DNA of 62,964 nt, taken from NCBI GenBank assembly GCA_001938485.1, contig MQRK01232504.1, positions 1 to 62,964 of the forward strand, in the 5' to 3' direction. The stretch is from Girardia tigrina (lineage: Eukaryota). Position 1 is the first letter of the stretch; each line of letters opens with the position of its first letter. The position numbers were made by a program, and so were the translations under genes. Shown piece after piece: positions 14,313-58,447 of this stretch. The notes beneath the pieces are model-generated. The model was given only the letters and a program-made list of their open reading frames with translations, did not search any database and had not been told where the DNA came from.

Positions 14313-14989
14313 TAAAATAATGAACAAATAGAAGTGTTGCAAAGAACAAATAATATAACCCAACATATATTTGTCAACATAGAGTACATTGTAAAAAAAG
14401 CAAAAATCAACATTTTTATTTATTAATATGAAAAAACTCAAATTAGATCAACGAATAGTTCGTAAAACAATTCAATAAAACTAGAGTCTTTCCACGCTTT
14501 TAATCTTATTTAAATTGATTTTGTTTTTGATATCGTTTGTCAGTTTTGTGCCAAGGTGATGCCTTGGATGCCTTGAAGGTTTGTTAAACGAACTGTAATT
14601 TCTATTATTTGCTCTAATAAGATTAGAAATCCTTCCAATCGACTTCGAAATCCCTGTTGAGAGCGGAAAAAATTGTAAACAGCTTGCCTGCCTTGATTTA
14701 ATCATGTTGTCCAGATAAATACAGATATCATTCGTTTCACAATCTCTCAGTTCATCAAAGGTCTCACGACAAAATTTATTGTACGATATGTACGACAACG
14801 ACGGCGGCGATGGTTCTGATGATATAAAATTAAATAATGAAATGGATAACACAGTAAATCTTTAAAGTTGCAAAATTAAACAAATTAAAGCTGAAAAATA
14901 AAAGTATATTAAATAGCAAAACAAATTATATATGATGGATAGAAATATATAGAGCAAACAGATATAAAATTTACATTGTAATGAATAAT

Positions 14990-15850
14990 TCTCGGTCTTC
15001 GTCGAAATGTGCGGTTGTAACGAATTCGTATACATATGTTGATTCTCCCAAGATATCTGTCTCTGTTCGTCTTCCTCTAAAATTGGCACTCTAATGATTG
15101 CGTTGAGAGTGTTTCGTCTGAGATGCTTCTTTGAAAATGTAGTTGTGCTTGAGAATGCATTAAAATGCGTTTTAATTTCGTAGAAAATCAAATGTGTTTT
15201 AAAATTGTTGCACGTTGAATGGAAATGATCATTATATTTATAGCATGGATTGTAGATGTGTATATTGGTCATCTTTCTGGACATATCGCTCTCTGGTTTG
15301 TGCCTGGCTGTCATCTCTTTTACCAATCTTTGATCGCCAAAATTACTAATACGAATGTACAAGTAATTCCTGCAATAACGTCATCCTGTCATGTCACCGA
15401 TTATTCATAGTGAATAATCGTGTGATTCCTATGTTGAATTTGATGGCTTACTCATGGTAAGTTTTTAATTAATGTGGTTTATTTGAATTAATTTTTCCAA
15501 ATCTTTAAAGGTTATTAACTTCAGTTCAGATGATCGGACCTCAGCATTCTGAACACGTGCGGATAGCCCTCGTCAAACTCTATCTAGAGAGGGGCGGTCG
15601 TCGTCAACGAATGCTTGATATGTTCGAAAACGGCTTTTGTAAATTTTGACCGATGTATGAGATTTTTAAAACGCAAAAAACGTCGTTATGAACTCGTTGG
15701 TCGTGTCGGTCGTTTGACGGCGTCAGGATTGCGCTGGGCTATTTGGAAACACCGGACAATGATTTCTATTTCTTAAATGTTTTAAACCACTGCATTTGTT
15801 TATTTCCCTTTCTTTTGACTGTTAAGTAAAATTATGTTTCGACCGCAACA
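14990..15850 (-). mobile_element. LTR-like element copy A (terminus TGTTGCGGTCGAAA on minus) with antisense intron module
   Basis: Ends tttcgaccgcaaca at 15850. Shares actcatg|gtaa...atctt(t)aaag|gttattaacttc...gaggggcgg with copy C. TATAAAT on minus at 15242-15236. Left boundary approximate. Confidence 0.65.
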
Positions 15851-17363: not shown

Positions 17364-17865
17364 ATGATTGAAAAACGTTCGAAAATTTCCCCGAATAATA
17401 TCGATTCCAATCGATCGGAATCATTGACTCAAACGAAACTCGATCGGCCGATAATGAACCGATTCGTGCAATCTGGTCAATTTGCCTCGCAGATCGATGA
17501 TTTCGCGACATTTATCGCGGCGAATCGATCGATCTTCGTGTTCGGTCCCGTATTCAGTGGCAAATTGGCACTGATCGATTTCATGGCCGATAAAATGGGC
17601 CGATCGATCAATCGGGTGCAAGTGAGCGACGACACGGATGCGCGCGCTATCCTGGGCGGATACTGCTGCACGGACTCGCCCGGAGACTTCCAGTGGCGCG
17701 CGGGCGCCCTCGTGACGGCTCTGCGACGAGGACAGTGGCTGGTGCTCGAGGACGCGCTGTCCACTGACGCTGTGCTGCTGGGGATGCTGAGGCCGCTGCT
17801 CGAGGCGGGAACGAGTGACGCGATGATTGGCGCGACCGATATTGGTGACTTTATCCACATCAGAT
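17364..17865 (+). CDS. MDN1: Midasin (MDN1/Rea1) AAA1-domain exon or orphan fragment
   Basis: Walker A GPVFSGK, then VQVSDDTDARAILGGYCCTDSPGDFQWRAGALVTALRRGQWLVLED, matching midasin AAA1 (VQLGDQTDSKMLLGMYRCTDVPGEFVWQPGTLTQA...HWILLED). GC/CpG-rich. Possible donor AT|GTAATA at 17866. Confidence 0.85.
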
Positions 17866-18951: not shown

Positions 18952-21588
18952 CAGTGTTTCTTTCAGCCTCACGGTTTTGGGGAGGGGAACCTTGTTTTCG
19001 ACGGGGTGTTAGAATTTACTTGTTTTTTTAATTGATTTTAGTGTTTGTATTACAACTATATAATTAACCTTGATATACAAGCAGCAAGTCAAAACAAACA
19101 CCAAAGGTAAAAGATTTATTAGTAACTAATGCACAATATAGTATTAACCCTTAAAAGGGATGCGAATTTGTCTCTCCTTTTGTCTATGCCAAATGCGAAG
19201 AATTTCGCATGCTTCCTTATCAGAAAGTGTATCTTTTCCCTCGATGAAAATGAACATACACATTCTAGATTTGAGAGAGGGAGTCGCAGTTTAAGTCGAG
19301 TTTTGATTCGGTTCATTAGACTAAAGGACCTCTCGACAGAAGGTGTACCCAAAGGACACAGGAGAATAATGGAAGCTAATTTTTGAAAGATTTGGAAAGG
19401 TACCGCTTAGCTCCCCGCTGGTGTTGACAAGAGAGCCAAGAACTTCACTAGAGGATGGCACGTTTTGTTTCATTTGGAGAATGGCTATATGATATCGGAA
19501 TACGTTAAAATCGTCAATCACATACACAAAACATTTTCAAGGAATTGGTGACTCTTGCAAATTGTTCGCAATTGAGCATGAGAATTTTGGAACATCTGTA
19601 GAATTTTGACATGGATCAAAGATAGATGTAGCTGTGGACATGACCATCACCTTATCAGAAAATCTAGAATCCATGCTGTCAAGTAAACATTCAATAAATG
19701 GATTAATCACTTTGGTGCGTAATCTGTCTTCCTTTTCATTGTTGTCTTCAACAAGTGCTAATGAATGCGATTGAAGAAAGAGAGGCATCATCTTCATAAA
19801 GAGATTTATTTCAGTCAGAATCAAACGTGCAGTAGCAACGATTTCCTGCATAGTGGCAAGTGTAGCTGTCGCAGTTTGAAGCTGCTTTGCCAAGATTGAG
19901 TGAGGCTGAAGAATTCTTTTCAGGGTATGTAGAATTATAATTCCTTTGCGAGTTCGAAGTGTTAGTAGAAGGTCACCAACCTCTGAGAATAAATCATCAC
20001 TGTTGGCATGAATTTCTTGCAGAGTAACTATGATAGCATGCAGACATTTGGTTGTTGCTGAAACACATTGATAGTATTATGTCCATCTTGTGTCTCCTGT
20101 TCGTATGAGTTCCATTTGAAGGCCATCGAGGTACTCTTGTACAGCCTTGAATTTACGATTGTTTTTGGGATAGTTATAATGTAGCCGCCCAAAACTATTA
20201 AGAACAGTGAACATGTTCTTTGTGTCCCTGTATTTATGTGCTGCATAGGCACACACAAGCTACAACAGAGGACTTCGACAATGGACGTAGACTGCATCTT
20301 TAGTGTGGTATTTGATCATTGGTGATTGTGTTTCATTTTGCTTACCCGACATATTGTTGGCTCCATCAAAGGGCAGCCACTTTACCTGCTGGCATTGATC
20401 TTCAAGATTTTCCAATGCGTGCAGAATCCCTTCTTTTATTTTAGTTGCCTCTGTATTTTCCAACTCCTGCAAACTTATAAAGATTTCTTTTAGCTCACTA
20501 TTAAGGTCAGGATAAAAAAGACAAACTGACAGAGTAGTTCTTCCTCTCAGATTAGTCGCCTCATCGGCCATGACAGGCAGATAGGGCACACAAAGATTGA
20601 ATGGTTTCAGTTGGTTTTTGAAAACGACTTGCATGTGTTCTTTGAAAGCAACAAGAAACTCAAAAGGAATGTTGTGCGACATATAAGTAGCATTTTAGTG
20701 GAGCTCCTGTCATTGCTTTATTCGCTCACTACCATCTAGCTCAGTACACAGATCCAACAGTCTGCCATACTTTGTGGTGTACGGTATTTTCTCTTTAACA
20801 AGCGTATAAGCTACCTTTAAATAGTCTACTAGGCGCTCTTGGTTCTCTTACATTACTTATTCACTTGCTATGTGCAATTGATTGAAAACAGTTCCAGAAC
20901 TCCAGAGTCTTTGGCTACATGGAAGCATTTTGCTTTACGATGCGTCTCTGATTCGGCATGTTTCAGTAGTTTATTGTTTTTGGAAGAACATCCTGTAACC
21001 GTTTTTAAATTAGTAAAGGGTTGTTTGATAAAAGTTCCGTTAGAACCTTTTGGTATAATATTCTTTAAAAAAATACACAGCAGTTTTCCGTAGTTAACCA
21101 TGAATGCTCATCACGGTATTTTTGAGGGTTCCGCTTCTCTGGTGGTATTTCAACAGGAACGTCATCAAAATTGACAGGATCATTCCGGGAAGTATCTGAA
21201 ACTTTAGTTTGTTTGGTAGAAGAGCTAAAATCTACAGTGGCAGAGATTTTAGCAAAATAATTAAGTAGATATGTGGCATGTCGCTTATTGGAAGTCATAT
21301 CACTGTATTTGTGTAAATAACACTAATACTGAAGTTAACACTGAGTATAGACAATGCAGTACAGTTGCTTCTGTTCACAATAATGTATGAAGGCGGTGGA
21401 GGATAAACTACTGTCACTTCCAGTTAATATAAACTTTAGGGTACTTGATTGTAAATTATATACAGTCGCTTTCAATTAAGAGTGATATTTCAGCTTTCGA
21501 AAGCGAATTTAACATTTAGATGTTTATTACTAAATATGGCTTATAATTGGAAAAGTTTGGAGGGAAGCGTTAAATTTTTGAAGGGGGT
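18952..21588 (-). mobile_element. hAT DNA transposon (ZMYM1/ZNF862-type), frameshifted transposase
   Basis: ORF pieces 21298-19119 contain MADEAT (first D), FDGANNMSGK (second D), YVHCRS (CxxH region) and SVERSFSLMNRIKTRL (hATC dimerisation domain). TIR-like CAGTGTTTC at 18952. The other end is cut by LTR-like copy B at 21589. Confidence 0.9.
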
Positions 21589-22780
21589 TGTTGCAGTCGA
21601 AAACCCATTTTTCACACGCAAAACACGACAACCACCAGACAGAAGGAAAAGAAAACAATTAGCTTTGATACATATATTTAATAACTAATAAGGATACTGA
21701 ATCAAATAAGCCGTCTTGTCCCCTCAGAACCTTTTTATGGCCCGTCGTGACGACGTGAAATGTTTCGGAGACTAAAATAACCCCAAAATGAACATATTAC
21801 ATAAAAGTCAAACCAAAACCCACCCGGTGGTCGAAATTGTAGAACAGAACCTCTCCGCGTAGGTCTCAGTAAGGGCTATCAGTGATCGAAAACCATTCTT
21901 CCATGTGGCCCTCGGATGGAAAGATATACCCATGTAAAGATTTACAAATTAATAAACAAAAAACAAAGACTAATTAAAAAATTACCGTGACTCAGTCCTC
22001 AACCCAAGAATAGACATCAGCTGACCTGAATCACCCGCATGCTGACTTGAGAGAAGTTGAAGAATTGTAGAGGTGTACAGGCACACAAGCACTGACTTCT
22101 ATAGTAAAAATAAAAATTTCAAAATTTTAAAAATTTTAAGAGAACACACCTACCTAGACTGACCAATTCGATTCACGGAAAGCTCCAGACAAGTAGCTGG
22201 CGTTGGGTGATTGGCGGAGATAGAATGAAGGGGTGTCCCTTCAACTCTATATAAGGAACGACCAGTCCAGCATTAAAACACACAATTTTTGAGAGACTTC
22301 TCGCTAATTAAACACGAACATACGAAAATTATATCAGTCGAATACCTTCGCCAGAATTATTATAACGTGACAGTGAAGATAACGAATTCCGCGATCAGAT
22401 TTCGGACAGACAACGCATCATTCGCCAGTACGAACCTTCGACACCGTGACTTATGGCACTGTTATGTTCTGTAAACTTATGGCAATGTATCATCTCTCGA
22501 GCCGCCAATTATCAGTAAAAGAACCTGACATCAGCGATGTAAAAATTATTTCTTTCGCTGTATATCGACCGGCAGTTTCCTCTAATTCCTGTTACAAATT
22601 ACTGATGTCCGTTCTATAGCATTTCTATAATTTCCCTTACTATTATACCAAGCGGCTATATTTAGAGTAAAGGTGGCATTCTACTAAACATATTCATAAA
22701 ACATAAACATAATCATATAACAGCACAAATAATCATAATAATAAAATGTATAATCAGAATAATAAAATAAAATTATATAA
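21589..22780 (+). mobile_element. LTR-like element copy B (starts TGTTGCAGTCGAAAA) with antisense introns
   Basis: Reverse complement matches copy C (ttaaatatatgtat...tttcttttccttctgt...aatgggttttcgac(c/t)gcaaca, and gatg(c/t)ctattcttgg). TATATAA at 22248. Minus-strand introns at 22153-22099, 21985-21932 (acceptor mutated) and 21823-21772. Right end approximate. Confidence 0.7.
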
Positions 22781-22808
22781 CCGTAAATGTATACCTTAAA
22801 ATTCTTCC

Positions 22809-22897
22809 CAAATTAAATTTCTCAAATTAAATTGTGCAAATTAAATTGTGCAAAATTAAATGGCGCGAATTAAATTGTGTAAAATAAATTGTGCAAA
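22809..22897. repeat. Tandem ~14-bp repeat (caaattaaattgtg)n, probably the subterminal array of a DNA transposon
   Basis: About six imperfect copies of aaattaaattgtgc. Confidence 0.7.
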
Positions 22898-23693
22898 ATA
22901 ACAACATGGTTGAGTGTCGTTGTTTTGTTTTATATACTCTACGGATGTGCCATCAAAATAAACACAATTCGTCCGATATCCACCGGTGACGATCATCCAC
23001 GCAGGATGTTCGTGGTCACGCAGGATGTGCGTGATCAACAGGAACACGAGGTAATTTTTCTTTGTTTATTGTTCGTATATTTATTAAATTCACGCAGGAT
23101 GTTCGTGGATAAACGGTATCTGGATTTGAAATCCAAATTTCAAATGTTAATTCAAGTACATATTAATTATTATTTTATTACATATTAATTAATTATTTTA
23201 GGTGGAGAAAATTCCTTGATTAATCCAATTAACCAACGAAAAAAATTAATCCAAGAATTTTCCCTTTTAGATCAACAAGAATAAGTTTTATTATTACTAA
23301 AATATATATTTAAAACTAGACACAAACAAGTAAATATTTAACAAGATTCAAGTTTTGAAATCAAAAAAAAAATAATACTTAGTTGGCTTTTCCACAATCA
23401 CCCAATCACTTAACCACACCAAAAGTTCTAACAAAATGATGTAATGGTAACGGTAATAACACAAAAATAATTTGGATTTTCTTTCGTCAGTAAATAGTTG
23501 CAGTAATAAATCAAACAGCAAATATTTGAGGTCAAATTTGTTGATAAATGATAATTACCAATTAATGTGGCAAACAGTAAAAATTTTATAATTCATAATT
23601 CAGATTATAATTCTGAATTATAATTGCTGATTCATTAAACTACATAAAAATAAAACTAAATACACAAAAAAATAAACGCTCACAATATATATA

Positions 23694-26626: not shown

Positions 26627-29345
26627 CAGTCGAAACGGGATAATGTAAAAGCGCTGGGGACAACAGAAATATTTTACATTATACGATGTTTTACAATAGA
26701 AAATGTGTGAAAAACTGCTTCCTATTTTCCAATGTAAAAGTACAATACAAACACTGTATGGTTAAAATATTCTCTAGTGAACACATTCTGAGTATTACAT
26801 ATGCGGCATATACAGTACAGTATATATGAATACAACGTACAAATTTTAATGAGTGAAGTNNNNNNNNNNTTTTTTCTGTTTCTGTCTTTTCAACGCATTT
26901 GATCTAATTTCCTCTTCCAACTTGTCCAAATGGTTCATTGTGGAATCATCGAAGCCCAGTGTGCACTGCATATAATGCCGAATTTTACCCAAACAAGTGA
27001 TACATTCAGTTATAGTGGGAGGAGTTAATTCGATATCATCTGCATCATCTTCATATTCCTCCTCGACATAGTCTGGTACATTACCGTCAAAATTGAAAGC
27101 TGTGATGAGTTGCTCATCTACATTATTATATTCATTAACCGTAAGTGTAGCTGGAATGAGTCCTGCCGCTTGTAACTACTCCCAAATATTATTCATTTCA
27201 TCGTTTCTTGACTGAAATTCATTTTGAACAGAAGGTGCCAAATCATCAAGGCCATCAGGAGCTTTGAATCCTTAAATAGACAGAAAAGAACAACAAGAGC
27301 GCAATTAGAATATGTTTATATGATACCGATGTTAAATTTAATGCAAATTATACCTGCATGTTGGAAACAGTGTTCAATTTTTGTAGAATCAATCTCTTCC
27401 CATGAGGCCTTGATAAGATTCAAAACTTCAAGCACATTGATAGAAAACGGTATGTTGTTGTGGAAAGCGAGAAGACGACGCTTAGCAAGACGTCGACGGT
27501 AATTTGCTTTTAACATCCTGATTACACCCGCGTCCATGGGCTGCAGTTTGGCGGTGGTATTTTTTGGGAGGCAGATAAGTTCCACATTGAACAATTTTTT
27601 CAGCTGTGGATGGGAAAGGCAATTGTCCATGATAATGACAATCTTTCGACCCAAGCATTTCATCTTATTATCAATCTTTCTGATATACTTTTCAAATAGA
27701 GAGGCGGTCATCCAGGCACACTTATTGTTATCGTATTCAACTGGCAATCGTTTCACGCCTTTAAAGCTTCGAGGACTCTACAATTGGCACATGCAGAATA
27801 ATGCACTATAGAAATGACTTTTAAAAAATAAATGTAACGTTATACTTACTGCAGTTTTTCCAATAGCCAGTAGCGGTAACTTGTCACGGCCAGTCATATT
27901 ACAGCCACACAAAATAGTCAGTCTCTCTTTACTTCTCTTATCTCCAACACATTTTTTGTTCTTAAAGGTGATTGTCCCTTCTGGCAATAACTTCCAGAAC
28001 AATCTAAGCTCATCAATATTGTACACATCTTCTGGTTTGTATTTTTTCGGTGGTGTTGGTAACGTATATATTATCCACTCATTAGTCATTTCAGGAGTAA
28101 TTTTTCCGGCTTCTCCAGATATTGACTTGTGAACAATCTCATGCCTGGCTTTCCAACGTTCGATCCACCCCAATTTTAGAACACCAGGATTTTCATGACC
28201 AAGCGATTGCGCAAGTTGTTGTGCCTTTTCCAACAACACTGCTCCTGTGAGTCCTTCAAGGTTTTGCGCATCGGTATTTTTAAACCATGTTAGCAGCTCT
28301 CTGTCGACATCATCAAACGTCACTTGTCGAACACGTTTAGCAGCATTTCGATAATCTCTTGATTGAACACGTTTCAGAATCTTTTCCTTTTGCTCACTGT
28401 AGATTCTTGTTGCATTTGAAACTTTGTATTTGACAGATATTTGAGAATGGTTTGATATTGGGTTTTTGTCTAGTTCGTTAATGATTTCATATTTAGTATT
28501 GAAATCAAGATCACGTCTGCTGCTACTATTCCCTTTGAACATGTCAGGCGTTTTAGTGAAGCGATGAAATGTTCTAAATAAATCCATAAATCCATGTAGT
28601 ACTGTACTATAGTGATGAGCTAAAGTCAAGCTGCCTAATGCACTCACTCACCCACACACACTGTTTAGTGGAGATGTATGGGGAGGAAGAAGCTCTATAA
28701 ATGTGTGTGTACATTAGGCAGCTTGATACAGTATCTCAATTCGTTGGTATAAAGTGCTTGACATGCACTAACAATTTCGTCCATGCACACATGCATCCAC
28801 ACCCAAATACGCCGTATATAATTTTACAATATGCGATGTGAAAAGAATGTAACTGTATTGCATTGGGACTTATACAGCCCTTTACATTACAAGAGGTTTT
28901 ACATTACACTTTTTACTATATACGATGTCGCTACAATATAAATGAATGGAGTCTTGGCCGTTCCACAGAAAGTGTTTACATTATAACGTTATTTTAAAAT
29001 AAGCCGTTTTACATTATCCTGTTAAATTTCTGGGGGGTTTGCGAATTATTACGCTTCGACCTCCGTTGAAATCTAACAAAGGAAAGTTGTAATTCGATAA
29101 AATTAGGTCTTTGGACGATTATAGAAATTTGTGATTTTAGATGCTTGATTTTATGTAAATATTTATGAAACAGTAAATGACAATAAAAGATAATAAATGA
29201 CAGTAAATGAGAGCACAAGCTTCTCTTTTTAATAAATTTTTATTTATTATATACAATAATTACAAATAAAGAATTTGTTACAATTGAAATATGTTTCCTT
29301 AATGTGTAATGCTTGATTTTTGTGGTGGTCACAGTACATCGACTG
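26627..29345 (-). mobile_element. Second pogo/Tigger element, transposase with two spliceosomal introns, right TIR interrupted
   Basis: Left TIR TA|CAGTCGAAACGGGATAATGTAAAA. Right TIR is split as ttttacattatcctgtt (to 29023) plus tcgactg (29339-29345). Motifs YNIDE, AWMT, MDNCLSHP, QPMDAGVI. Introns 27849-27778 and 27353-27271. Confidence 0.9.
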
Positions 29346-29540
29346 CAGACCACAAATAGATGAGTTTAAGATAATAAAAATTATTAGTTTAAAAATTTTG
29401 GAAATATAATAATGCATTATTGATTTTAAAATATGTTAAGTTTAAATAATAAAAATTTTAAATAACTATTCAGGAATCTCACCGAATGTGAAAACTATTC
29501 TCCTTCTAGTAAAATTTAACCAATAGGCGTTCCCGTTAAC

Positions 29541-29787
29541 AGATTCTTCCGACAATATAACAATTTTTCTTCACAACTTCGTAGACAAAAATGCTCGACG
29601 TCCTCGGTTAATAGATTCTTCTGACAATATAACAATTTTTCTTCACAACTTCGTAGACAAAAATGCTCGACATCCTCGGCTGATAGATTCTTCTGACAAT
29701 ATAACAATTTTTCTTCACAACTTCGTAGACAAAAATGCTCGACGTCCTCGGCTAATAGATTTTTCTGACAATATAACAATTTTTTCT
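29541..29787. repeat. 72-bp tandem repeat, ~3.4 copies
   Basis: agatt(c/t)tt(c)...gacaatataacaattttt recurs at 29541, 29613, 29685 and 29757. Open on minus as (EEKLLYCQKNLLAEDVEHFCLRSC)n. Confidence 0.95.
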
Positions 29788-30488
29788 CCGGAACTGATAC
29801 CAAAATCTTCTTAATGCTAATAAGCCTTCGCGTTCGGAATCCTTCTCGAAATCTAAATTACTTTTAAAAGGTTCTAGTATATATAAAAAATTTATACCTA
29901 AATTACTTTTAAAAGGTTCTTGAATTTATGATTTTTTAACTTCTTTATATATTTATTTTAAGTTACGTTGGTAACTAAAATCTTACGTCGACTTATTTTA
30001 AGGTTATGTAGGTTTAGATCAACCTTAAAGGTTTTTATTTTAACATAAGTTATGTAGGTTTAGATCGACCTTAAAGGTTTTTATTCTAACCTTAAAAAAA
30101 TATATGCTTGCGTTTTATAATATAATATTTAATTTATTAAATTGTTTATAATAAATATAATATTTTATTTGAAACTTCACGTATAATATTTATTCTTGAA
30201 TAAATAATATCTTCGTATTATTTATACATTTATTATAAACAAAATAAATAAGCAATAAAACAAATAAAAGCAATAATAATAAGCGATAAATAAGGTTGAA
30301 TTAAACAACAAAGGTTCAATAAATAAAGTCAAAATAATTACAAAAAGTCAGAATAATTTTTAAAAAGTCAAAATAATTTTTCAATAGATAATTATACAAA
30401 ATGTCAAAATAATTACAATCCCCAACATTCGTGGGGGGTCATTTTAGTTATGACCTCATAACTGTCAATCACAAATAAAATGTTCATG

Positions 30489-31825
30489 TTAATCACAAAA
30501 AGGTGTTAATGTCCCTTTTTTTTGGAATTCTTGTCGGTTCGGGATCCTGACTCCGATTCTGCTGGAATCTTTGGTAGTCTTTCTGATATATTGCTTCACT
30601 TCTTTGTTCCGAGTTTCACGGTACTTTCCAGAGAGAAAAAGATGTCTTATTTCTGCGTTGTCCTTTCTCAACAAGACAGAATTGAGATATCTTTAATATC
30701 TTCGATATCTTTAATACCGTGACAACCTGTCACGAAGTCTTTTATGTGCGATCTGGGTTTAACTAACGTGTGCTTTAAGACGGCACCGTTATAATCTAGA
30801 ATCGCGATGGACACGAGATGATGTTTTTTGTCATCGTCAATGGCGTATTCGCCGTCCATCACTCTTATTCTATTTCGGATCTCTTTTTTCGATAGGGGTT
30901 TTTTTTCTTCGATAGGTTTTCCTCTCCTTTTTATTATTTGATCAGATATCTTCAGATCTGATTCTATTAATAGGTAATTTTTGGCAATGAATGGATTCGG
31001 AATGTCGTCCTGGAAAATAAATTCCACGGCGAATATCCCAATCTCCTCTGAGGGTGATATTTTAATATCATTCAATTTTTCAATTTCGTTCACATCCCTC
31101 AAATCAAAGATTTAAAGCTCGATGGACCTTTTTTCTGGTAGGTTGATGGTTGTTTCACCATCAGTCACCTGCAATGGGGTTGATGCAGCATGAATATATA
31201 CTGCTAGGACCTTATTAAAAGGTCTATTGAATGTAGTAGGAATGGAGTGACGATACACTCCCAATATGTCCGCTATGGTCATCCGTCCTGGGACTGTTCT
31301 TTTGACAATTGTCATTTTCTTATTGTATTCATTGAATACAAGGTAATTTGGATACCTGGTGGTATGTTCGATCTTGGTTTTGAGTACGGGCTGATCTCCA
31401 GGCATCCCGTACTGCAATCCTTTATAGAACGAGACGGGATAATAGTGGGGGGTTACTTTGAAATTATATATAATTGTTATCTCTATACTTATGGGTTTGG
31501 AAGGGTCCCAGTTTGAAGGTAGTGGGACCGGTGGGGCCATATATTGAGTTTTGTACTCTTCTAAGAGGCTGTGCTTCTTATCTTCTATTTCTTGGAGCCT
31601 TTTAACCTCTTCTAACTGCTTGGCATATCGCCTATCTTGGAAGTGGGTTACAATATCACGATTGTTGACCTGCACTATCCTATCTGGCAGCTCATAAAGT
31701 GAGGGTAAAGGTTTTCGATTTCCCTTGAACTCGGAACATTGGCTGAACTGCGCTTCGGCAGTACTTGTGGAATGATGTCTCGACATTTCGGCTCGAGACA
31801 TCTTCTGATTATTTGATTTGAACAT
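30489..31825 (-). pseudogene. Accessory ORF with C-terminal DEDDh 3'-5' exonuclease (REXO4/ISG20/REX1-like), downstream of Gypsy pol
   Basis: ORFs 31957-31112 and 31102-30668 are in frame, separated by one TAA. The C-terminal part RIRVMDGEY...LVSIAILDYNGAVLKHTLVKPRSHIKDFVTGCHGI fits ExoI DxE plus the SIVNxxG / YVKP / DYRTxxSGI pattern. Likely ATG at 31825. Confidence 0.7.
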
Positions 31826-31959
31826 TCTGAATGAATAATTATAACTATTAGTTGCTTGTTTACTTATGATTGAAAAATATATAATCACATACAATACTTT
31901 TATTTTATTGATTTTAAAATATTTTGTGTTGTCATTTAGATCAAATTTTTTATTCATAC

Positions 31960-32630
31960 GGCATTTTTATTTTTCATCAAACTCTCTAATGGTTTGTGAT
32001 CGGTTTTCAATATAATTTCTGTGCCTTATAAATATTGTCTAAAATGTTGTATTGCAAAAACAATAGTCAAACATTCTCTTTCTATTGTAGAATATCTAGT
32101 CTCTGCGCCTTTTAATACACGACTTACATATGCTATTACATAATCTTTTCCATTTTCGTCTTCTTGCCCCAAAACTGCTCCTAGGGCTCCTCCACTGGCG
32201 TCTGTCATCAGGATAAATGGTTTCGTAAAATCTGGATATCTTAATACTGGAAATGTTATCAAATTCTCTTTTAATTTTTCAAACGCCTTTTGACATTCTT
32301 CAGTCCATTTAAAATATTTATTGATATCCTTTTTAGGTACATCTTTTGGTATTTTTGTTAAATTAGTTAGTGGAATTGCAATTTTCGAAAAATCCTTTTG
32401 AAATCTTCTGTAATAACCTGCTAATCCTAAGAAACTTTGTATTTGTCTAATTGTTTTTGGGACTGGAAAATCTTTTACTTGACTAACTTTCTCGGGATCT
32501 GGCATAACTCGTTTTGCTGAGAGGTGATGCCCTAAAAACAAAACTTCCGATGCACCAAAAACACATTTTGTTGGTTTGATTTTTATACCAGCATTTCTAA
32601 GTTTTCTGAACACATCTCTTATATTCTTTT
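31960..32630 (-). mobile_element. Ty3/Gypsy pol fragment: RT C-terminus, connection and RNase H
   Basis: KCVFGASEVLFLGH, SFLGLAGYYRRF, FILMTDASGGALGAVLGQ, YSTIERECL, then after a stop TDHKPL. Integrase is missing. Confidence 0.95.
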
Positions 32631-33148
32631 TCGCTTTTGGTCTTCGGCCTTCCTCTTTTATCTCTAAGCGGATGCAGCTCAGGCTGACCACCTTTCCACC
32701 TCAGAGGCCTCTCAAGACCTCTGATGTCCTTAGCTTCCCAGGTCTCAATTTTCAATCAACCTGATCACTGAAGCATGATTCTCCGTTGTTGCACTTCAAC
32801 GGGTTATCATGGCCTGACTGTACATTGAGCCAAACGTACCTTGTTTGACCGACCGGTGACCCAGTCGATAGCGACCCTGTTATGTCATTTCACAACAGAA
32901 CGGACGGTCTGATCCCCATCCGCCTTTGCTAACGGCATGGAAACTTTGACCGTTTTCATCGGCCTTGCCTGTTTACCCCAAACCAACAAAGGGCTAGGTG
33001 TAACTTGTCAGTTACATTATCTACATTATCAACATTATCTATTATTATTGATAAAATAGACTTCATGTCAATAAAAAGCCTCTCTGTCTCACAAATCATC
33101 AAATGAGCTCAATGGAGTAAATTCATCAGAAAAGAAAGAAAATATTAA

Positions 33149-38728: not shown

Positions 38729-39197
38729 TAGTTAAACAAGTTATTTATTACTGTATCTTCTACATAATTGAAAGCCAACTCAAGATCTTCGTTCCATTTT
38801 ATCTTATCTCATTTACGTCGATTTTTATCTATTTTTATTTTACATTGATTAGATATTTTACATTGAAAAGATATATTGCTTTTATTATTATGAAGAAAAT
38901 ATAAAAATATTTCTGTTGCATTTATTTAGGTATCTTCAGTGCTTAACAGCATTTGAATTCCAAAGTGTAAATGTTATTATTTTGTAATGCATAATAATTT
39001 TAAACCTGTTCGACAGATTCACCGCACTCGATATTGTAGCAGTAGCAGTAATAGTAGTAGCAGTAGTGACGAAGCAGATGATGAAATAAATAGAGTCACG
39101 ACCCTATCGAGTACAAAAATTTTTGCAAGCTCTAGATCCCCCAGTGATTGTTAAGGGCAAACCAAAATCCATTATAATTTTATTCCTATTTCAACAT

Positions 39198-39727
39198 TGT
39201 TGTATAACAGGGTCGGACGCCTCCTGTCTTGCCTGACATCTGCCTAGCAGTGCCAAGCTCAAGGGGCCTTCGGGTTCAGTTAAAGATAGGATAGGCTATG
39301 GGCCTCCCACCTTGGTCAGTATCAATAGGAGATGATTTCAATCTGTGCAACTGTGTACTCTTCCGATGAATGTATCGCTCATGACTGTCTGTATGTTGTC
39401 ACTGTGTGACACTGTATTTAAGTATAAACTGATCGTCATTGCAACGGAAAACTCGTAACACTGCAGTTTTCATGACTTGTGGCCGCGCTGTATGTTAACC
39501 TACTTGCGGCATCGGGGAGTTCTGAAATATTATTGTCAGTGGCATGTTATACCATTACCGCCTCTAAACCCATGCATCTCATCCCTATCTGTGCTAGCGT
39601 CTCATATCGTATCAGTCGAATTTGTTGCAGCTCAATTAAATTAATTCACTCAATATGAGTAAGTCTTAATAACCTACTTTACTTTAATTCCATCCTAATT
39701 ACCTTTAATAAATTTCTACCAACAACA
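39198..39727 (+). mobile_element. Solo-LTR-like GC-rich segment
   Basis: TGTTGT...ACAACA termini, a TATA-like tatttaagtataaa at ~39415-39428 and AATAAA at ~39707. No TSD found. Confidence 0.5.
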
Positions 39728-39834
39728 GGTTTAAAAATTTTCAATTTAAAACCCTTCAATTTGAGGTCAGAAGATCTCTTCGAAGAACACTCTCAATCAC
39801 ATTAAAATGGTAATGTCTAACCTAATCAAGATTC

Positions 39835-41335
39835 TGTTATACTAATTTTATTATAAAAGAAAAACTTTATTATAATTCGTAAAACTCCCCTTAACCGCCT
39901 GTAAACAATTAAAATCATAAGATCCGTTATAAAATTATTGTCCAAACGTATTTATTAATGTAAATAAAAACTAAATCCATTAACTTAATCAAAATTTACA
40001 GTTTAAAATTTACAGGTATTCGGAGGTTCGCTGGCTAAGTTGTCAATCGGTCAGATGTGAATAGTTTTCGCTCGTCGGCGCGTCAGTCGGTTGAAGCGCT
40101 TGTCGGTAAATCTGCTCTAGGATTCGGGATTCACTCTCTCGATGCCGTAATTCGTCGATCGGTACTTCATTCGGTCTTCACGGATAAGCTGTCGTTCGTC
40201 GGCGTGGTGCTTTTAGGTTCAACTGTTCTCGCTCGAAGTTTCTTGGTAATGCGTAAGTGTAAGTCTTGCTTTTTATTTCGAAAATGTGCGACTTAATGAA
40301 AAAATGATTCTTGTTTTATACCTTAGCTAGGTTGTCCTGTTGTCCCTTCTCGTCAATCGCCTGCTGCCAGCAAGAAGTCTACAAAATTCTGCGATGCTGG
40401 TTGATCGGGCTTGTTCGTGTGTCTCCAAAAATTTTTTGGTAATTTTTGATTTATTATGGAATTTTGTAATTGTATGTTGATACATACGTTATCATTTTCA
40501 GGACACACGCGCGGCTTATTCACCGGTGATTAATACGGAATCATCATATGATGCCTATTCTTGGAGTCACGGTTGACTCATGGTAATTTTAATTAATTTT
40601 CTATATTTGTTAATTAACTTTTGAATCTTTCAGGGGTTATATCTTCTCTCAGGAAGGTGCTAGGGCCTTGCGGTTTTCGCCAAGATATTGCTCTTGCGAT
40701 GCTCTTTCACAGGAGGGTCGCTTGACCCCCTAGATCTATTGGATACCTCGGTAAGGAACTTCGTTGGTTTTTGTCTGTTTTTTAATTAATTATTACTCTT
40801 TCAGGGTCAATAACTTCTTTCGGGGATCTATCAGTGTCTTACGGGTTCCATTCAGGGACTCGCCTTGTGTGGGGCTACACGGAGGGGGTCGGATGACCTC
40901 TTAATTCCATTGGGTGTTTCGGTAAGGAACTTTATTATTTTTCGGGTTTATTTTAATTAATTCTTGTTCCTTTTAAGATTTATAACTTCTCTCAGGGGTC
41001 TGCCCCGTTTTGACGGGTCACCGTCACGCGTGCGCTTCATGATGCTCCAACTGTGGAGGGGCGGTTGATCGATTTTTCGTCATCGGGTAAGTTTTTTCTC
41101 AACTTTGTTTTTTTTCTTTATGTTACATTTTTAGCTCTTAATCTATGTCTTCGATGTCCTACCGGCCTTCTGGAGTGCCTCGGCAGCTTTGAAACTTATC
41201 TGCTGTAGATGTCGTATGCATTAAATATATGTATTAAATTTAACTGACTTTCTTTTCCTTCTGTTTGCTGAGTGCTATGTTTGCGTGTTTGTGTAATTAT
41301 GTTAAAATGTATTAATGGGTTTTTCGACCGCAACA
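39835..41335 (-). mobile_element. LTR-like element copy C with three tandem exon+intron modules on the opposite strand
   Basis: Terminus ttttcgaccgcaaca at 41335 and TATAAAA on minus at 40320-40314. Plus-strand GT-AG introns at 40253-40330, 40439-40501, 40583-40633, 40751-40804, 40922-40977 and 41087-41134. Left end approximate. Confidence 0.7.
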
Positions 41336-42779
41336 ATAGTTTTGAAATCTGAAACTGATAAGGATTGTGTGAATTTTACAGATTTTTGGATGTCGAATTT
41401 GAAGATGTAGAAAATGAAGCTGATGAAATATCTGCTGTTGGTAATTCTTGTTTTGGTTGGGGTTAACCAAACAAAAATTGCTATAAATATTTTAGAATAT
41501 TTTAATTCAATTATTAATTTACTGATCGTGGAAAGATAATTCTTTGATGAATTTAACTCAATTAACAGTAAATCAAAGAATACTCTCTCGAATATTGATC
41601 TGGTAATAAGGTAATCAAGAGTTAATGATTGTCCGAGCAATAAAAATAAATATATCTTTTTAATAATGCAACCAGAGTTTAAAACATATATTAATCTCCA
41701 ATTAACTCTTAAAGACAATAATATATTAACCAGTAAAATACAAATACTTATCAGGATATTCAAACCAATTAGTGCATACAAAGTACGCAGTCCGAATGGT
41801 ATCAATATTCAACAGTCACTGTTTAATAAAATACAGCCGGAAAACCGAAAGTTGCAACTCTAATGGCACGAATATTCGACAGTTAACGTCCAATACAATT
41901 ATCAGTCAGATAGACTCCCGAAATAGGCTATATATTGGCTATAAATTGACACAAAACCGACAAGAAAAATCCGATTGTGATAGAAATCGCCGAATTAATG
42001 AATTAATAATCTCAATAATAACTTATGTATTTCGTTGTTTAGTAATTTATTGATTTATCGATTCTTTTACTTATTTAATTTTTAAAACTTAATTTCTAAT
42101 TTTTTGACTGAATGTATAAATTATTATTCTAGTTTCTTTTTCCTTCTTTTTTTCCTTTCTTTTTCCTACTGAATAATATACAACCTCTCTTCATCAAAAA
42201 TAAAAAAAAATAAAATAATATTACACAATAAAAAATAAATAATTGTGCCGATAACTTAAATAAATCATGCACATACTAAGACCAAGATCGTGATGTATAT
42301 ACTTAAATGACCCATAAATCGCACAAATATTAGCTCTTGAATTTACATTATTATTATTCAAAAAAATAAAGAAAAAAAACAAGGTGTTGAATATAAACGA
42401 CACGACATTAGACCCTCCTTGCAAGTGCGGAGCATGTCATAAATTTTTATTTAGTAGGTGGTGGATAGTTTGATTCTCGATAAGTTTACATATGTGTCTT
42501 TTACGTTGATCGTAAGTAAAACACAGTTGTTGGTTATCAATTTAAAACTTAACACAAATCTTTTTTCAAAGTTTTTTGAGTTTTTAATTTTTACATATGC
42601 TACAGTATTTTCCGGGATATTTTTATTGTTGTTGTTGTTTAGTGTTTTCAGTTTTCGATTAAGTTATTGCGTGTTTTTTTTGGTAAGAATATATAGCGTG
42701 CAATTACCTTCCTTACTGCTAATCTTATATCGAAGAGCTAATAAGTTTTGTGAGAGATTAGAGAGCTAATTCTTGTCGT

Positions 42780-51784: not shown

Positions 51785-52230
51785 TTAGTATAATGCCTTT
51801 TTTGTACCATATGATATGGCTCCACTCGCAACTGCTGGAACAATAAAACGGGCAAGCCATTGAAAGAATGGTATTAAAGCAGCCCATACGAAACCATTAC
51901 CATCTTGATTTCTTTGCTGATTTTGTTTCTTTTTCTTTATTTCATGTAATACTTTAGCACCAAAATAATTTGTATTTGATTTTGTAGGTGATTTTTGTGA
52001 TTGATTTTTTTGATTAAGAATATGTAGTTTTGTTTTTAATGTCCTTGTCTTGAACATTTTAAGTAATGTATCTTGATACTTCTTCAAAGACCTTTTGTAA
52101 TTGCCAATTTTTACATTGCCAGCCACAATATTCATCAGAACTTCAATGAAATCCTTCTGTACAAATGCTGGGAACTTATGTATTAGGTGTATAACTTAGT
52201 TTTTTGGATTTTCTAAGAGATGGTGTAACC
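51785..52230 (-). mobile_element. Polinton/adintovirus small basic protein with GxGF-hydrophobic tail (cupiennin-like ORF)
   Basis: IEVLMNIVAGNVKI...LKKYQDTLLKM...QDGNGFVWAALIP resembles the Polinton ORF pattern ECxxNILxGNVxL...LxKxKxxLRxL...QxGGFL. It lies just upstream of the integrase. Confidence 0.65.
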
Positions 52231-57754: not shown

Positions 57755-58066
57755 CCATCATTTGTGGCCCTGATAATGGCGTATTTTGTTCTTTTTTTCT
57801 ATGTCATGCAACTCCAATACAATCGGAATCAATTGATGCAACGGATTTTCTGTGCGGATCAGATCAACAAACTCTGTCAACAAAAGATTGTCGACTCTCT
57901 CCACTTCTGAAGCGCCTCGTTTCTAGTTAATCAGCACTCGACTGCATTTGATTGTCGGACAAGACCTCAACAACTTCTCGTTTGTTGATCTGCTCAACAA
58001 TCCGGTCGCTCCGGTTATGAAAACGGTTTTGTTGTCATAAAAATCCAAAATACTTCTCGTTATCAT
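57755..58066 (-). pseudogene. Fatty acyl-CoA reductase (FAR, extended SDR) first-exon pseudogene
   Basis: [40 protein letters not shown]...IN*KRGASEVERV matches the FAR N-terminus ([28 protein letters not shown]). It has an in-frame TAG and has lost the third Gly of GxxGxxG. Confidence 0.85.
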
Positions 58067-58447
58067 ATTTCAGTTGGGACACGATTCAAATATGATAATT
58101 GGAAGGATTGAATTAAATGAAAAATTGAAATACTTGCAAATATCAAGCCGAATGATAAATATTATAATTTTTTATTTATTTTAGAAAACTCTGCTGGGTT
58201 ACCACATTTACAATTCTTATTATTTAAACCACAAAAATTTTATTAAAGTTGAATTGCAATTTTACTTTCATTTTAATTCATTTTAAAATAATTTTAAATT
58301 TATAACTATAAAATGGTCCAGAATTTAAACTCTTAACTTTTTAAACAACATTTTCCAACCGGATAATTGTACTCTTTAACTACGAACATTGTCAATCAAT
58401 TTTTATTATTAAAATGTAATTTTAGTTGGAATAAATATATATTAATA

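Follow-up and report, generated by a model that had tools for sequence, protein, structure and literature searches.

The repeat described here occurs three times in a 62,964-nt stretch of Girardia tigrina DNA (contig MQRK01232504.1), hereafter called the window, which denotes the whole stretch analysed. The window has a GC content of about 30%, contains N gaps and is dense in transposon remains. The three copies, named A, B and C, resemble long terminal repeats (LTRs), and the + strand of copy C, within 39835–41335, carries a unit of six short GT-AG introns whose joined forms were recovered in assembled contigs.

Three diverged copies with a common terminus

The first-pass annotation of this DNA had proposed a terminus shared by the three copies, and this was confirmed: TGTTGCRGTCGAAA is found as an exact match three times in the window, at 15837–15850 (−), 21589–21602 (+) and 41322–41335 (−), for 0.0005 occurrences expected. 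The copies are as follows.

14980..15850, − strand: copy A, whose far end was not located; a single module; TATA-like word at 15236–15242
21589..22906, + strand: copy B, 1318 bp from TGTTG to CAACA, with the far end placed provisionally; a single module; TATA-like word at 22248–22254
41322..41335, − strand: conserved terminus of copy C, exact match; putative LTR 5' end with a TG start

Homology extends past the terminus. By blastn, C and B share 63% identity over 309 nt (E 7e-17) and 80% over 70 nt close to the terminus, while C and A share 73% over 132 nt (E 1e-14) and are also homologous in the exon 1 region. As a whole, A, B and C are only about 50–60% alike, and hence stand for different subfamilies and not for a pair of LTRs. 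As for the far end, B has its CAACA at 1318 bp, and several candidate CA ends were found for A and C. That of C is blurred by a second repeat abutting it at approximately 39095–39730, which is multi-copy in run X1 (see below) and has TG...CA-like ends near 39198 and 39724–39727. Across the provisional end of B (22796–23120), a 14–15-bp tandem array and repeated short words were observed, which may form an insert like a miniature inverted-repeat transposable element.

The contigs of four runs (X1 to X4, one sample from one study) were aligned to positions 39000–41699 at 85% likeness. The RNA nature of these runs is guessed, their contigs give neither strand nor starts and ends, and no DNA control is among them. 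In X1, 299 contigs were aligned, with 26, 48, 114 and 111 of them at 99% identity or more, 95–99%, 90–95% and below 90%, respectively; being mostly 85–95% alike, they indicate a large family. Contig cover is absent in all four runs at bins 39000–39089 and 39720–39899, which carries no weight. Outside the window, the terminus pattern was met at four loci of a metagenome collection and one of a viral collection, and all five were rejected as chance occurrences in GC-richer, unrelated DNA with homology limited to about 22 nt at most.

The spliced unit of copy C and its modules

Six consecutive canonical GT-AG introns of 48–78 nt had been predicted on the + strand of C. Their number and their GT-AG ends held; the length range did not, since intron 1 measures 72 nt and its 78-nt form is absent among the joints listed. 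Introns 1 to 6 are thus 72, 63, 51, 54, 56 and 48 nt long, with a GC content of 16–29%, and separate GC-richer exons.

39990..40258, + strand: exon 1 region, start not mapped; putative R/U5; cover from 40048 (X1) and 40085 (X2); homologous to A
40259..40330, + strand: intron 1, 72 nt; GT..AG joint in X1, X2 and X4; spans the putative sense core promoter
40331..40438, + strand: exon 2, 108 nt; X4 record 22, 0 differences
40439..40501, + strand: intron 2, 63 nt; GT..AG joint in X1 and X3; an X4 loose end at 40439 runs into exon 3
40502..40582, + strand: exon 3, 81 nt; X3 record 20, 0 differences over 40501–40581
40583..40633, + strand: intron 3, 51 nt; seen as a GT..AG joint in X2 and X3; the most conserved intron across the three copies
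40634..40750, + strand: exon 4, first module exon, 117 nt; X2 record 13
40751..40804, + strand: intron 4, 54 nt; two X1 joints from diverged paralogues (40737>40805 and 40751>40807)
40805..40921, + strand: exon 5, second module exon, 117 nt
40922..40977, + strand: intron 5, 56 nt, with an AAG acceptor; GT..AG joint in one X1 contig, the short side of which has just 20 letters
40978..41086, + strand: exon 6, third module exon, 109 nt; 52–57% identity to the other two module exons (Z 5.3–5.9)
41087..41134, + strand: intron 6, 48 nt; X1 paralogue joint 41077>41134 with nine letters between
41135..41335, + strand: exon 7 region, the last one, RNA 3' end not mapped; X1 record 7 covers 41134–41309 and joins across intron 6
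41220..41270, + strand: candidate poly(A) signal, ATTAAA at 41220 and 41233 followed by a T-rich tract

The search for contigs joined across the predicted introns bore the prediction out, all six introns of C being missing in contigs: introns 1, 2, 3 and 5 appear as exact GT..AG joints, and introns 4 and 6 by way of diverged paralogues, with a few extra letters at the joint. Fifteen of the 19 joints are listed; nine of these 15 sit on the six introns, none has CT..AC ends, and the remaining six have non-canonical ends and look like differences between paralogues. Since X2 record 12 and X4 record 22 show 0 differences from C on either side of intron 1, the C locus itself, or a near-identical copy, yields the joined form. 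Upstream, paralogue contigs extend 220–255 nt leftward of 40067, and further down an X4 loose end behind 40914 continues as exon-6-like sequence. Intron-retaining contigs are present too (X1 records 5 and 6), as expected if sense RNA, pre-mRNA or DNA keeps the introns. One of the non-canonical joints comes from a paralogue found in X1 and X3 (40313–40353), in which intron 1 sequence is retained and a stretch of about 36 nt is gone that includes the TATA-like word together with the intron 1 acceptor, a natural case for telling which of the two signals matters.

The exon 7 region is 63% identical between C and B (Z 9.1). The ATTAAA block recurs in B (21682, −) within the best-conserved block of the two copies, about 100 nt inside the terminus in both; the hexamer was not found near the terminus of A. 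X1 record 7 continues beyond ATTAAA to 41309, which contigs cannot interpret.

An intron-like rule tuned on C finds five units on its + strand and none on its − strand. Applied to 174 background tiles, the same rule gave 0, 1 and 2 units in 142, 27 and 5 tiles, respectively, and no tile reached three; 12 of 300 local shuffles reached five. With the contigs as the decisive evidence, the splicing of the + strand unit of C is very likely real.

Concerning the modules, two extra copies in C had been claimed, each with an exon of 117 nt and with every frame stopped, and both were recovered, one stop being found in each + strand frame. C in fact carries three such blocks, homologous to one another and each made of an intron and the exon after it (introns 3 to 5 with exons 4 to 6; 168, 171 and 165 nt). 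Their mutual identity is 53–60%, and all three have a usable GT and AG; A and B have one module each, 44–52% alike to each module of C. With blocks just 53–60% alike, the duplications must be old, and the two extra blocks (344 nt) account for the 356-nt difference in TATA distance between B and C. The claim of a module variable in copy number is upheld between the three subfamilies and finds no further support among contigs, as no listed joint cleanly skips one or two modules. Two joints (439 and 520 nt) are compatible with, and do not establish, paralogues lacking two modules.

Introns had also been claimed at homologous positions in A and B. As the contig alignment covered the C region, those given here are predictions from the letters.

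21772..21823, − strand: B, equivalent of intron 6, 52 nt, predicted
22099..22153, − strand: B, intron overlapping intron 2 of C, shifted, 55 nt, predicted
15457..15510, + strand: A, equivalent of intron 3, 54 nt, predicted; acceptor one base off

The claim stands for the intron 3 donor, kept with its flanks in all three copies, and for intron 6 in B; several other sites are lost or shifted. At intron 3, B lacks an AG at the matching site and the acceptor of A is displaced by one base. B has, besides its shifted intron 2, a 77-nt candidate for intron 1, while in A both the GT and the AG of intron 6 are missing and no intron 2 is visible. That splice signals would be conserved above exons was likewise true in part: intron 3 is 72–78% identical vs. 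56–58% in shuffled sequence (module exons 48–57% vs. 47–48%), and intron 6 hardly departs from its shuffled value (55–56% vs. 49–53%).

Coding capacity and orientation of the repeat

No coding signal was found in the spliced product of C or in the five module copies of A, B and C. Over 32 splice/skip combinations, the longest ATG open reading frame (ORF) of spliced C has 44 amino acids, and its longest open stretch (97 amino acids) was equalled in 127 of 500 shuffles. Every module exon is stopped in each + strand frame, the five module copies all have a stop in their best frame, and their identity by codon position (0.51, 0.43 and 0.48; shuffle p 0.47, 0.88 and 1.0) reveals no periodicity. No conserved open frame under purifying selection was detected in copy C and the five module copies, and single-base indels occur in the exons of paralogue contigs. 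A protein motif seemingly conserved across modules by eye failed a shuffle test, and tblastx of C against A and B gave matches in many frames and on both strands, as DNA similarity does. A profile search of 1.84 billion proteins returned five matches, all rejected as repeat-summing artefacts (best single-stretch E 1.2e2); an Atlas search with exon 2 gave no usable match, and Pfam, run on 20 ORFs, nothing on the three that overlap copies A or C. The decayed repeat-protein gene offered as an alternative by the first-pass annotation therefore gained no support from the coding tests and the profile search. At the RNA level, Rfam at its gathering threshold has 0 matches within the window, and a shared fold of the five module copies reached a consensus of −2.58 kcal/mol with an unfavourable covariation term and was rejected, a small hairpin being seen by eye in each of modules m1 and m2. 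On these grounds, the spliced RNA is most probably non-coding, although a short peptide may be encoded by other copies.

The orientation of the repeat was examined through its candidate LTR signals.

40314..40320, − strand: TATA-like word assigned to a putative sense promoter; on the other strand, it falls within intron 1
21580..21588, + strand: polypurine tract (PPT)-like sequence abutting the TG of B, present in one of three copies
22907..22920, + strand: primer binding site (PBS)-like sequence starting with TGG, directly after the CAACA of B; no tRNA match established; adjoins the 14–15-bp tandem array, which may be another element
39135..39143, − strand: PBS-like motif in the orientation of C, 2.2 kb from its terminus, one mismatch; three in the window vs. 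2.4 expected, weak alone

TATA boxes had been placed about 610, 660 and 1015 bp from the terminus, and the words do lie at 609, 660 and 1016 nt. Their value as independent promoter evidence was lost, since the TATA word coincides with the last part of intron 1 as read on the opposite strand. In our reading, the word in A and B is a T-rich AG acceptor seen in reverse complement, and the CATT that follows would likewise correspond to a branch-point-like word. The acceptor used in C is 10 nt away from the TATA word, a slight point for a genuine TATA box.

The PPT-like pattern occurs three times in 125,928 strand-bases, once at the end of a gypsy integrase ORF (48180). The PBS-like motif at 39135–39143, which we take to be of the tRNA-Pro type, may mark the far end of C or belong to the second repeat family there. 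The check for paired LTRs, PBS, PPT and target site duplications (TSDs), as proposed at the outset, yielded within the window the PPT-like tract of B and the PBS-like candidates, and neither TSD, nor pair, nor linked gag-pol. An inverted terminus, as a DNA transposon with terminal inverted repeats would have, was sought within two mismatches near A, B and C and was not found, nor was one seen among the longest inverted repeats listed. The spliced strand follows from the GT-AG ends, and the strand of the element mainly from the PPT-like tract of B. Supported also by the TG start and the conserved 14-bp end, the repeat is probably an LTR in the direction first proposed.

Several other elements of the window deserve mention. 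Transposon pieces recognised there are pogo-like (DDE_1, HTH_Tnp_Tc5) and Ty3/gypsy (reverse transcriptase, RNase H and integrase), and others are presumably mariner-like and hAT-like, labels given from reading the translations and without library match. An ORF end at 51785–52195 (−), without Pfam match, is in our assumption akin to Polinton/adintovirus core-protein precursors, and a frameshifted fragment at 57760–58070 (−) is taken, by eye, for the N-terminus of a fatty acyl-CoA reductase. The pogo-like transposase seems by eye to carry a short GT-AG intron where its two ORFs meet (27781–27850, −). At 29537–29784, a 72-bp unit is repeated in tandem 3.4 times, its copies being 95% alike, and an open frame runs along its − strand. 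A gypsy reverse transcriptase/RNase H piece at 30420–32700 (−) is followed by a 284-aa ORF without Pfam match, then by a 147-aa ORF weakly resembling DEDD exonucleases (SDN1 E 0.36; ISG20L2 E 0.41), a purine tract and, near 30420, what is likely the start of an LTR; extra DEDD ORFs occur in rotifer LTR elements (PMC5408684). Finally, an isolated GC- and CpG-rich midasin-like AAA exon lies at 17372–17846 (+; AAA_5 E 1.3e-8), with a Walker A motif that is degenerate here and intact in its one relative, found at 57%; longer proteins yielded no relative. If the hAT sequence is discounted, it stands about 1.3 kb before the PPT-like tract of B, with no link shown; midasin homology has been noted in one Burro-like element (PMC6431247).

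A probable LTR that may carry its own antisense RNA

The three copies are best explained as LTRs of three old subfamilies of one LTR-retrotransposon lineage, of the Ty3/gypsy or BEL type (not placed further). The first-pass annotation had seen in them an LTR whose U3 encodes an antisense, multi-exon, probably non-coding RNA. Of this, the anatomy of the unit and the joined forms without introns belong with the observations, and a spliced, multi-exon and apparently non-coding transcript on the + strand of C is supported by these contigs and by the coding tests; the direction of the LTR is likely, not shown. In its full form, the proposal is that the LTR holds a complete unit for a spliced, non-coding antisense RNA, which would damp the promoter of that same LTR; we attribute to it a probability of about 0.45. 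A selected regulatory role is given a slight preference over a by-product.

The antisense unit would start in R/U5 and cross the sense core promoter, which lies inside its own intron 1. In U3, as many as six short introns would be removed from it, and its end is probably at the ATTAAA some 100 nt from the terminus. Retrotransposition places a copy of U3 in either LTR. As the introns stand backwards on the genomic RNA, the spliceosome would leave them before reverse transcription, so that each insertion and each solo LTR would inherit the unit; this inheritance, like the function, is what we infer. Intron-marked retrotransposition reporters rely on the same logic of backwards introns (PMC12786077). 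A tandem duplication of the block of about 171 bp would have led from one module to three. As for the brake itself, transcription across the promoter would interfere with sense initiation, and the antisense RNA, once spliced and stabilised, could form duplexes with sense RNA and supply small-RNA silencing. The part of splicing would be to make the antisense RNA stable or to have it exported, as was proposed for HeT-A (PMC2615633). With such an arrangement, the element may ship its own regulator with each new copy. That the splicing itself is the selected feature, the copies, solo LTRs included, presenting as intron-bearing, host-like genes that tune silencing with module number as the dial, seems rather unlikely.

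Known systems offer partial parallels. The Drosophila elements HeT-A and TART provide a precedent for non-coding, multi-intron antisense RNA of a retroelement (PMC2615633, PMC1636488): theirs also starts from a terminal or repeated region and has been proposed as a source of small RNAs, and the size and spacing of its introns are kept despite sequence divergence. These are, however, non-LTR telomeric elements with introns in long UTRs, whereas the present unit seems confined to an LTR-like repeat, runs across the putative sense promoter and has grown through duplication of intron+exon blocks. Spliced antisense RNAs that start in an LTR are known from bovine leukaemia virus (BLV; AS1 and AS2) and from HTLV-1 (HBZ) (PMC4855707, PMC10186651). 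AS1 is nuclear, resembles a long non-coding RNA (lncRNA) and was proposed as a silencer of the 5' LTR, although its knock-down did not reactivate it in the study concerned. In BLV, a single intron leads from the LTR to the internal region; here, six introns and a candidate poly(A) signal are inside the repeat, so that solo LTRs would keep the unit. Ty1 antisense RNA, likewise derived from the element, represses its own family (cited in PMC12786077, the relevant passages of which describe no multi-intron structure for it). The unit is not filed as a member of the HeT-A/TART or deltaretrovirus systems, from which it is set apart by the six introns and the candidate poly(A) signal inside the repeat and by its modular growth.

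LTRs of the planarian element Burro were reported by Grohme et al. in 2018 to give multi-exon transcripts demonstrated by strand. Should the host be a planarian, the two phenomena could be one, which could lower the novelty. None of the domains of the giant gypsy element Burro/GYPSM1 given in a review was tied to A, B or C, and the review's passages on it are silent about multi-exon LTR transcripts (PMC6431247). A literature search, largely outside subscription journals, found no multi-intron antisense RNA contained in an invertebrate LTR.

Several points weigh against our proposal. No 5- or 6-bp TSD match after a CA was found within 6 kb of A, B or C, 4-bp hits being mostly AT-rich and within chance; neither was a pair of similar LTRs or a gag-pol tied to any copy found within the window, the gypsy pol scraps there being linked to none of them. 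A TSD is expected only for solo LTRs or intact elements, and its lack lowers the LTR reading without excluding it; for want of one, LTR membership is left open. The TATA- and initiator-like words can be explained wholly as the acceptor and branch point of intron 1. B is flanked by both PPT-like and PBS-like sequences, unlike a single ordinary LTR; one of the two may be there by chance, or B may be a tandem junction. With no intron 3 acceptor in B and no intron 6 sites in A, splicing is not kept everywhere. The internal exons of C (108, 81, 117 and 117 nt) have lengths divisible by three without exception; a non-coding RNA has no use for this property, the chance of which is about 1 in 27 if the two modules are counted once. 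Finally, the runs amount to one sample of guessed RNA nature, with strandless contigs and no DNA control.

The phase of the exons bears directly on a different view, in which we would be dealing with a small antisense accessory gene, or with what is left of it after decay, that grew by symmetric exon duplication; intact subfamilies would translate a short, fast-evolving peptide, and A, B and C would be broken copies. Exons 2 to 5 of C being multiples of three, the stop of both 117-nt exons at the matching codon of one frame and the occurrence of some paralogue single-base indels as compensating pairs all agree with it; yet the five module copies, all stopped in their best frame, display neither codon-position bias nor synonymous excess, the 44-aa ORF, the artefactual profile matches and the empty search with exon 2 offer it nothing, and the predicted exon 3 of B has 113 nt. 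We regard such a gene as unlikely. Somewhat less probable still is that the repeat is no LTR in the proposed direction. On this view, a dispersed non-coding family has the spliced strand as its sense strand, being either a non-autonomous element whose 3' end is the CAACA or a group of host lncRNAs multiplied through copying of the DNA, and what looks like a TATA box is a mere splice acceptor. The lack of TSD, LTR pair and linked pol would then be natural, as would the coincidence of TATA and acceptor in A and B; the spliced form is the only RNA form demonstrated, and a TATA-like word occurs on the + strand near 39930. On the other side, the PPT-like tract abuts the TG of B just as at the gypsy junction (48180), no copy (0 of 3) has a TGG after the terminus read the opposite way, and a 14-bp end conserved against 40–50% divergence suits an integrase attachment site. 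Retrotransposition would, moreover, lose sense introns, C keeps its TATA despite an acceptor 10 nt off, and no inverted terminus lies near any copy.

Two further explanations retain the LTR and differ in what splicing is for. Introns are known to protect transcripts from silencing. The spliced antisense RNA could accordingly make the LTR look like a host gene to a surveillance that silences intron-less RNA, with extra modules adding splice events and the introns kept backwards in U3 because sense introns cannot be kept. Intron 3 is conserved above the adjoining exon, expansion gave introns without a coding frame, and many paralogues are present in the runs. However, the RNA so protected would be the antisense and not the genomic one, A and B lost some splice sites, and antisense RNA more simply feeds silencing (PMC1636488, PMC2615633); this camouflage is held to be quite improbable. 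The alternative we deem the least probable of all is an LTR in which splicing is a by-product, AT-rich and GC-rich U3 blocks, kept or duplicated as enhancer repeats, happening to be spliced when transcription from a bidirectional promoter runs in the backward direction. Fast variation is a known property of U3 (PMC12992720), HeT-A antisense splicing has been attributed in part to cryptic sites (PMC2615633), sites were lost in A and B, and the 12 of 300 shuffles cited above are consistent with it. Such a by-product would hardly be expected to have six consecutive introns within a band of 48–72 nt, used in several paralogues, nor to keep GT and AG in three modules 40–47% apart, together with a conserved ATTAAA and T-rich block on the same strand.

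The role of introns in the antisense RNAs of retroelements has been called enigmatic for HeT-A and TART (PMC2615633). If an LTR carries a self-contained antisense unit, as proposed here, this question becomes testable, as the whole unit is about 1.4 kb in size, would be copied with the LTR, has one or three modules and is represented by many paralogues that look expressed. Each solo LTR of the family would, furthermore, leave a ready-made multi-exon lncRNA gene in the host genome.

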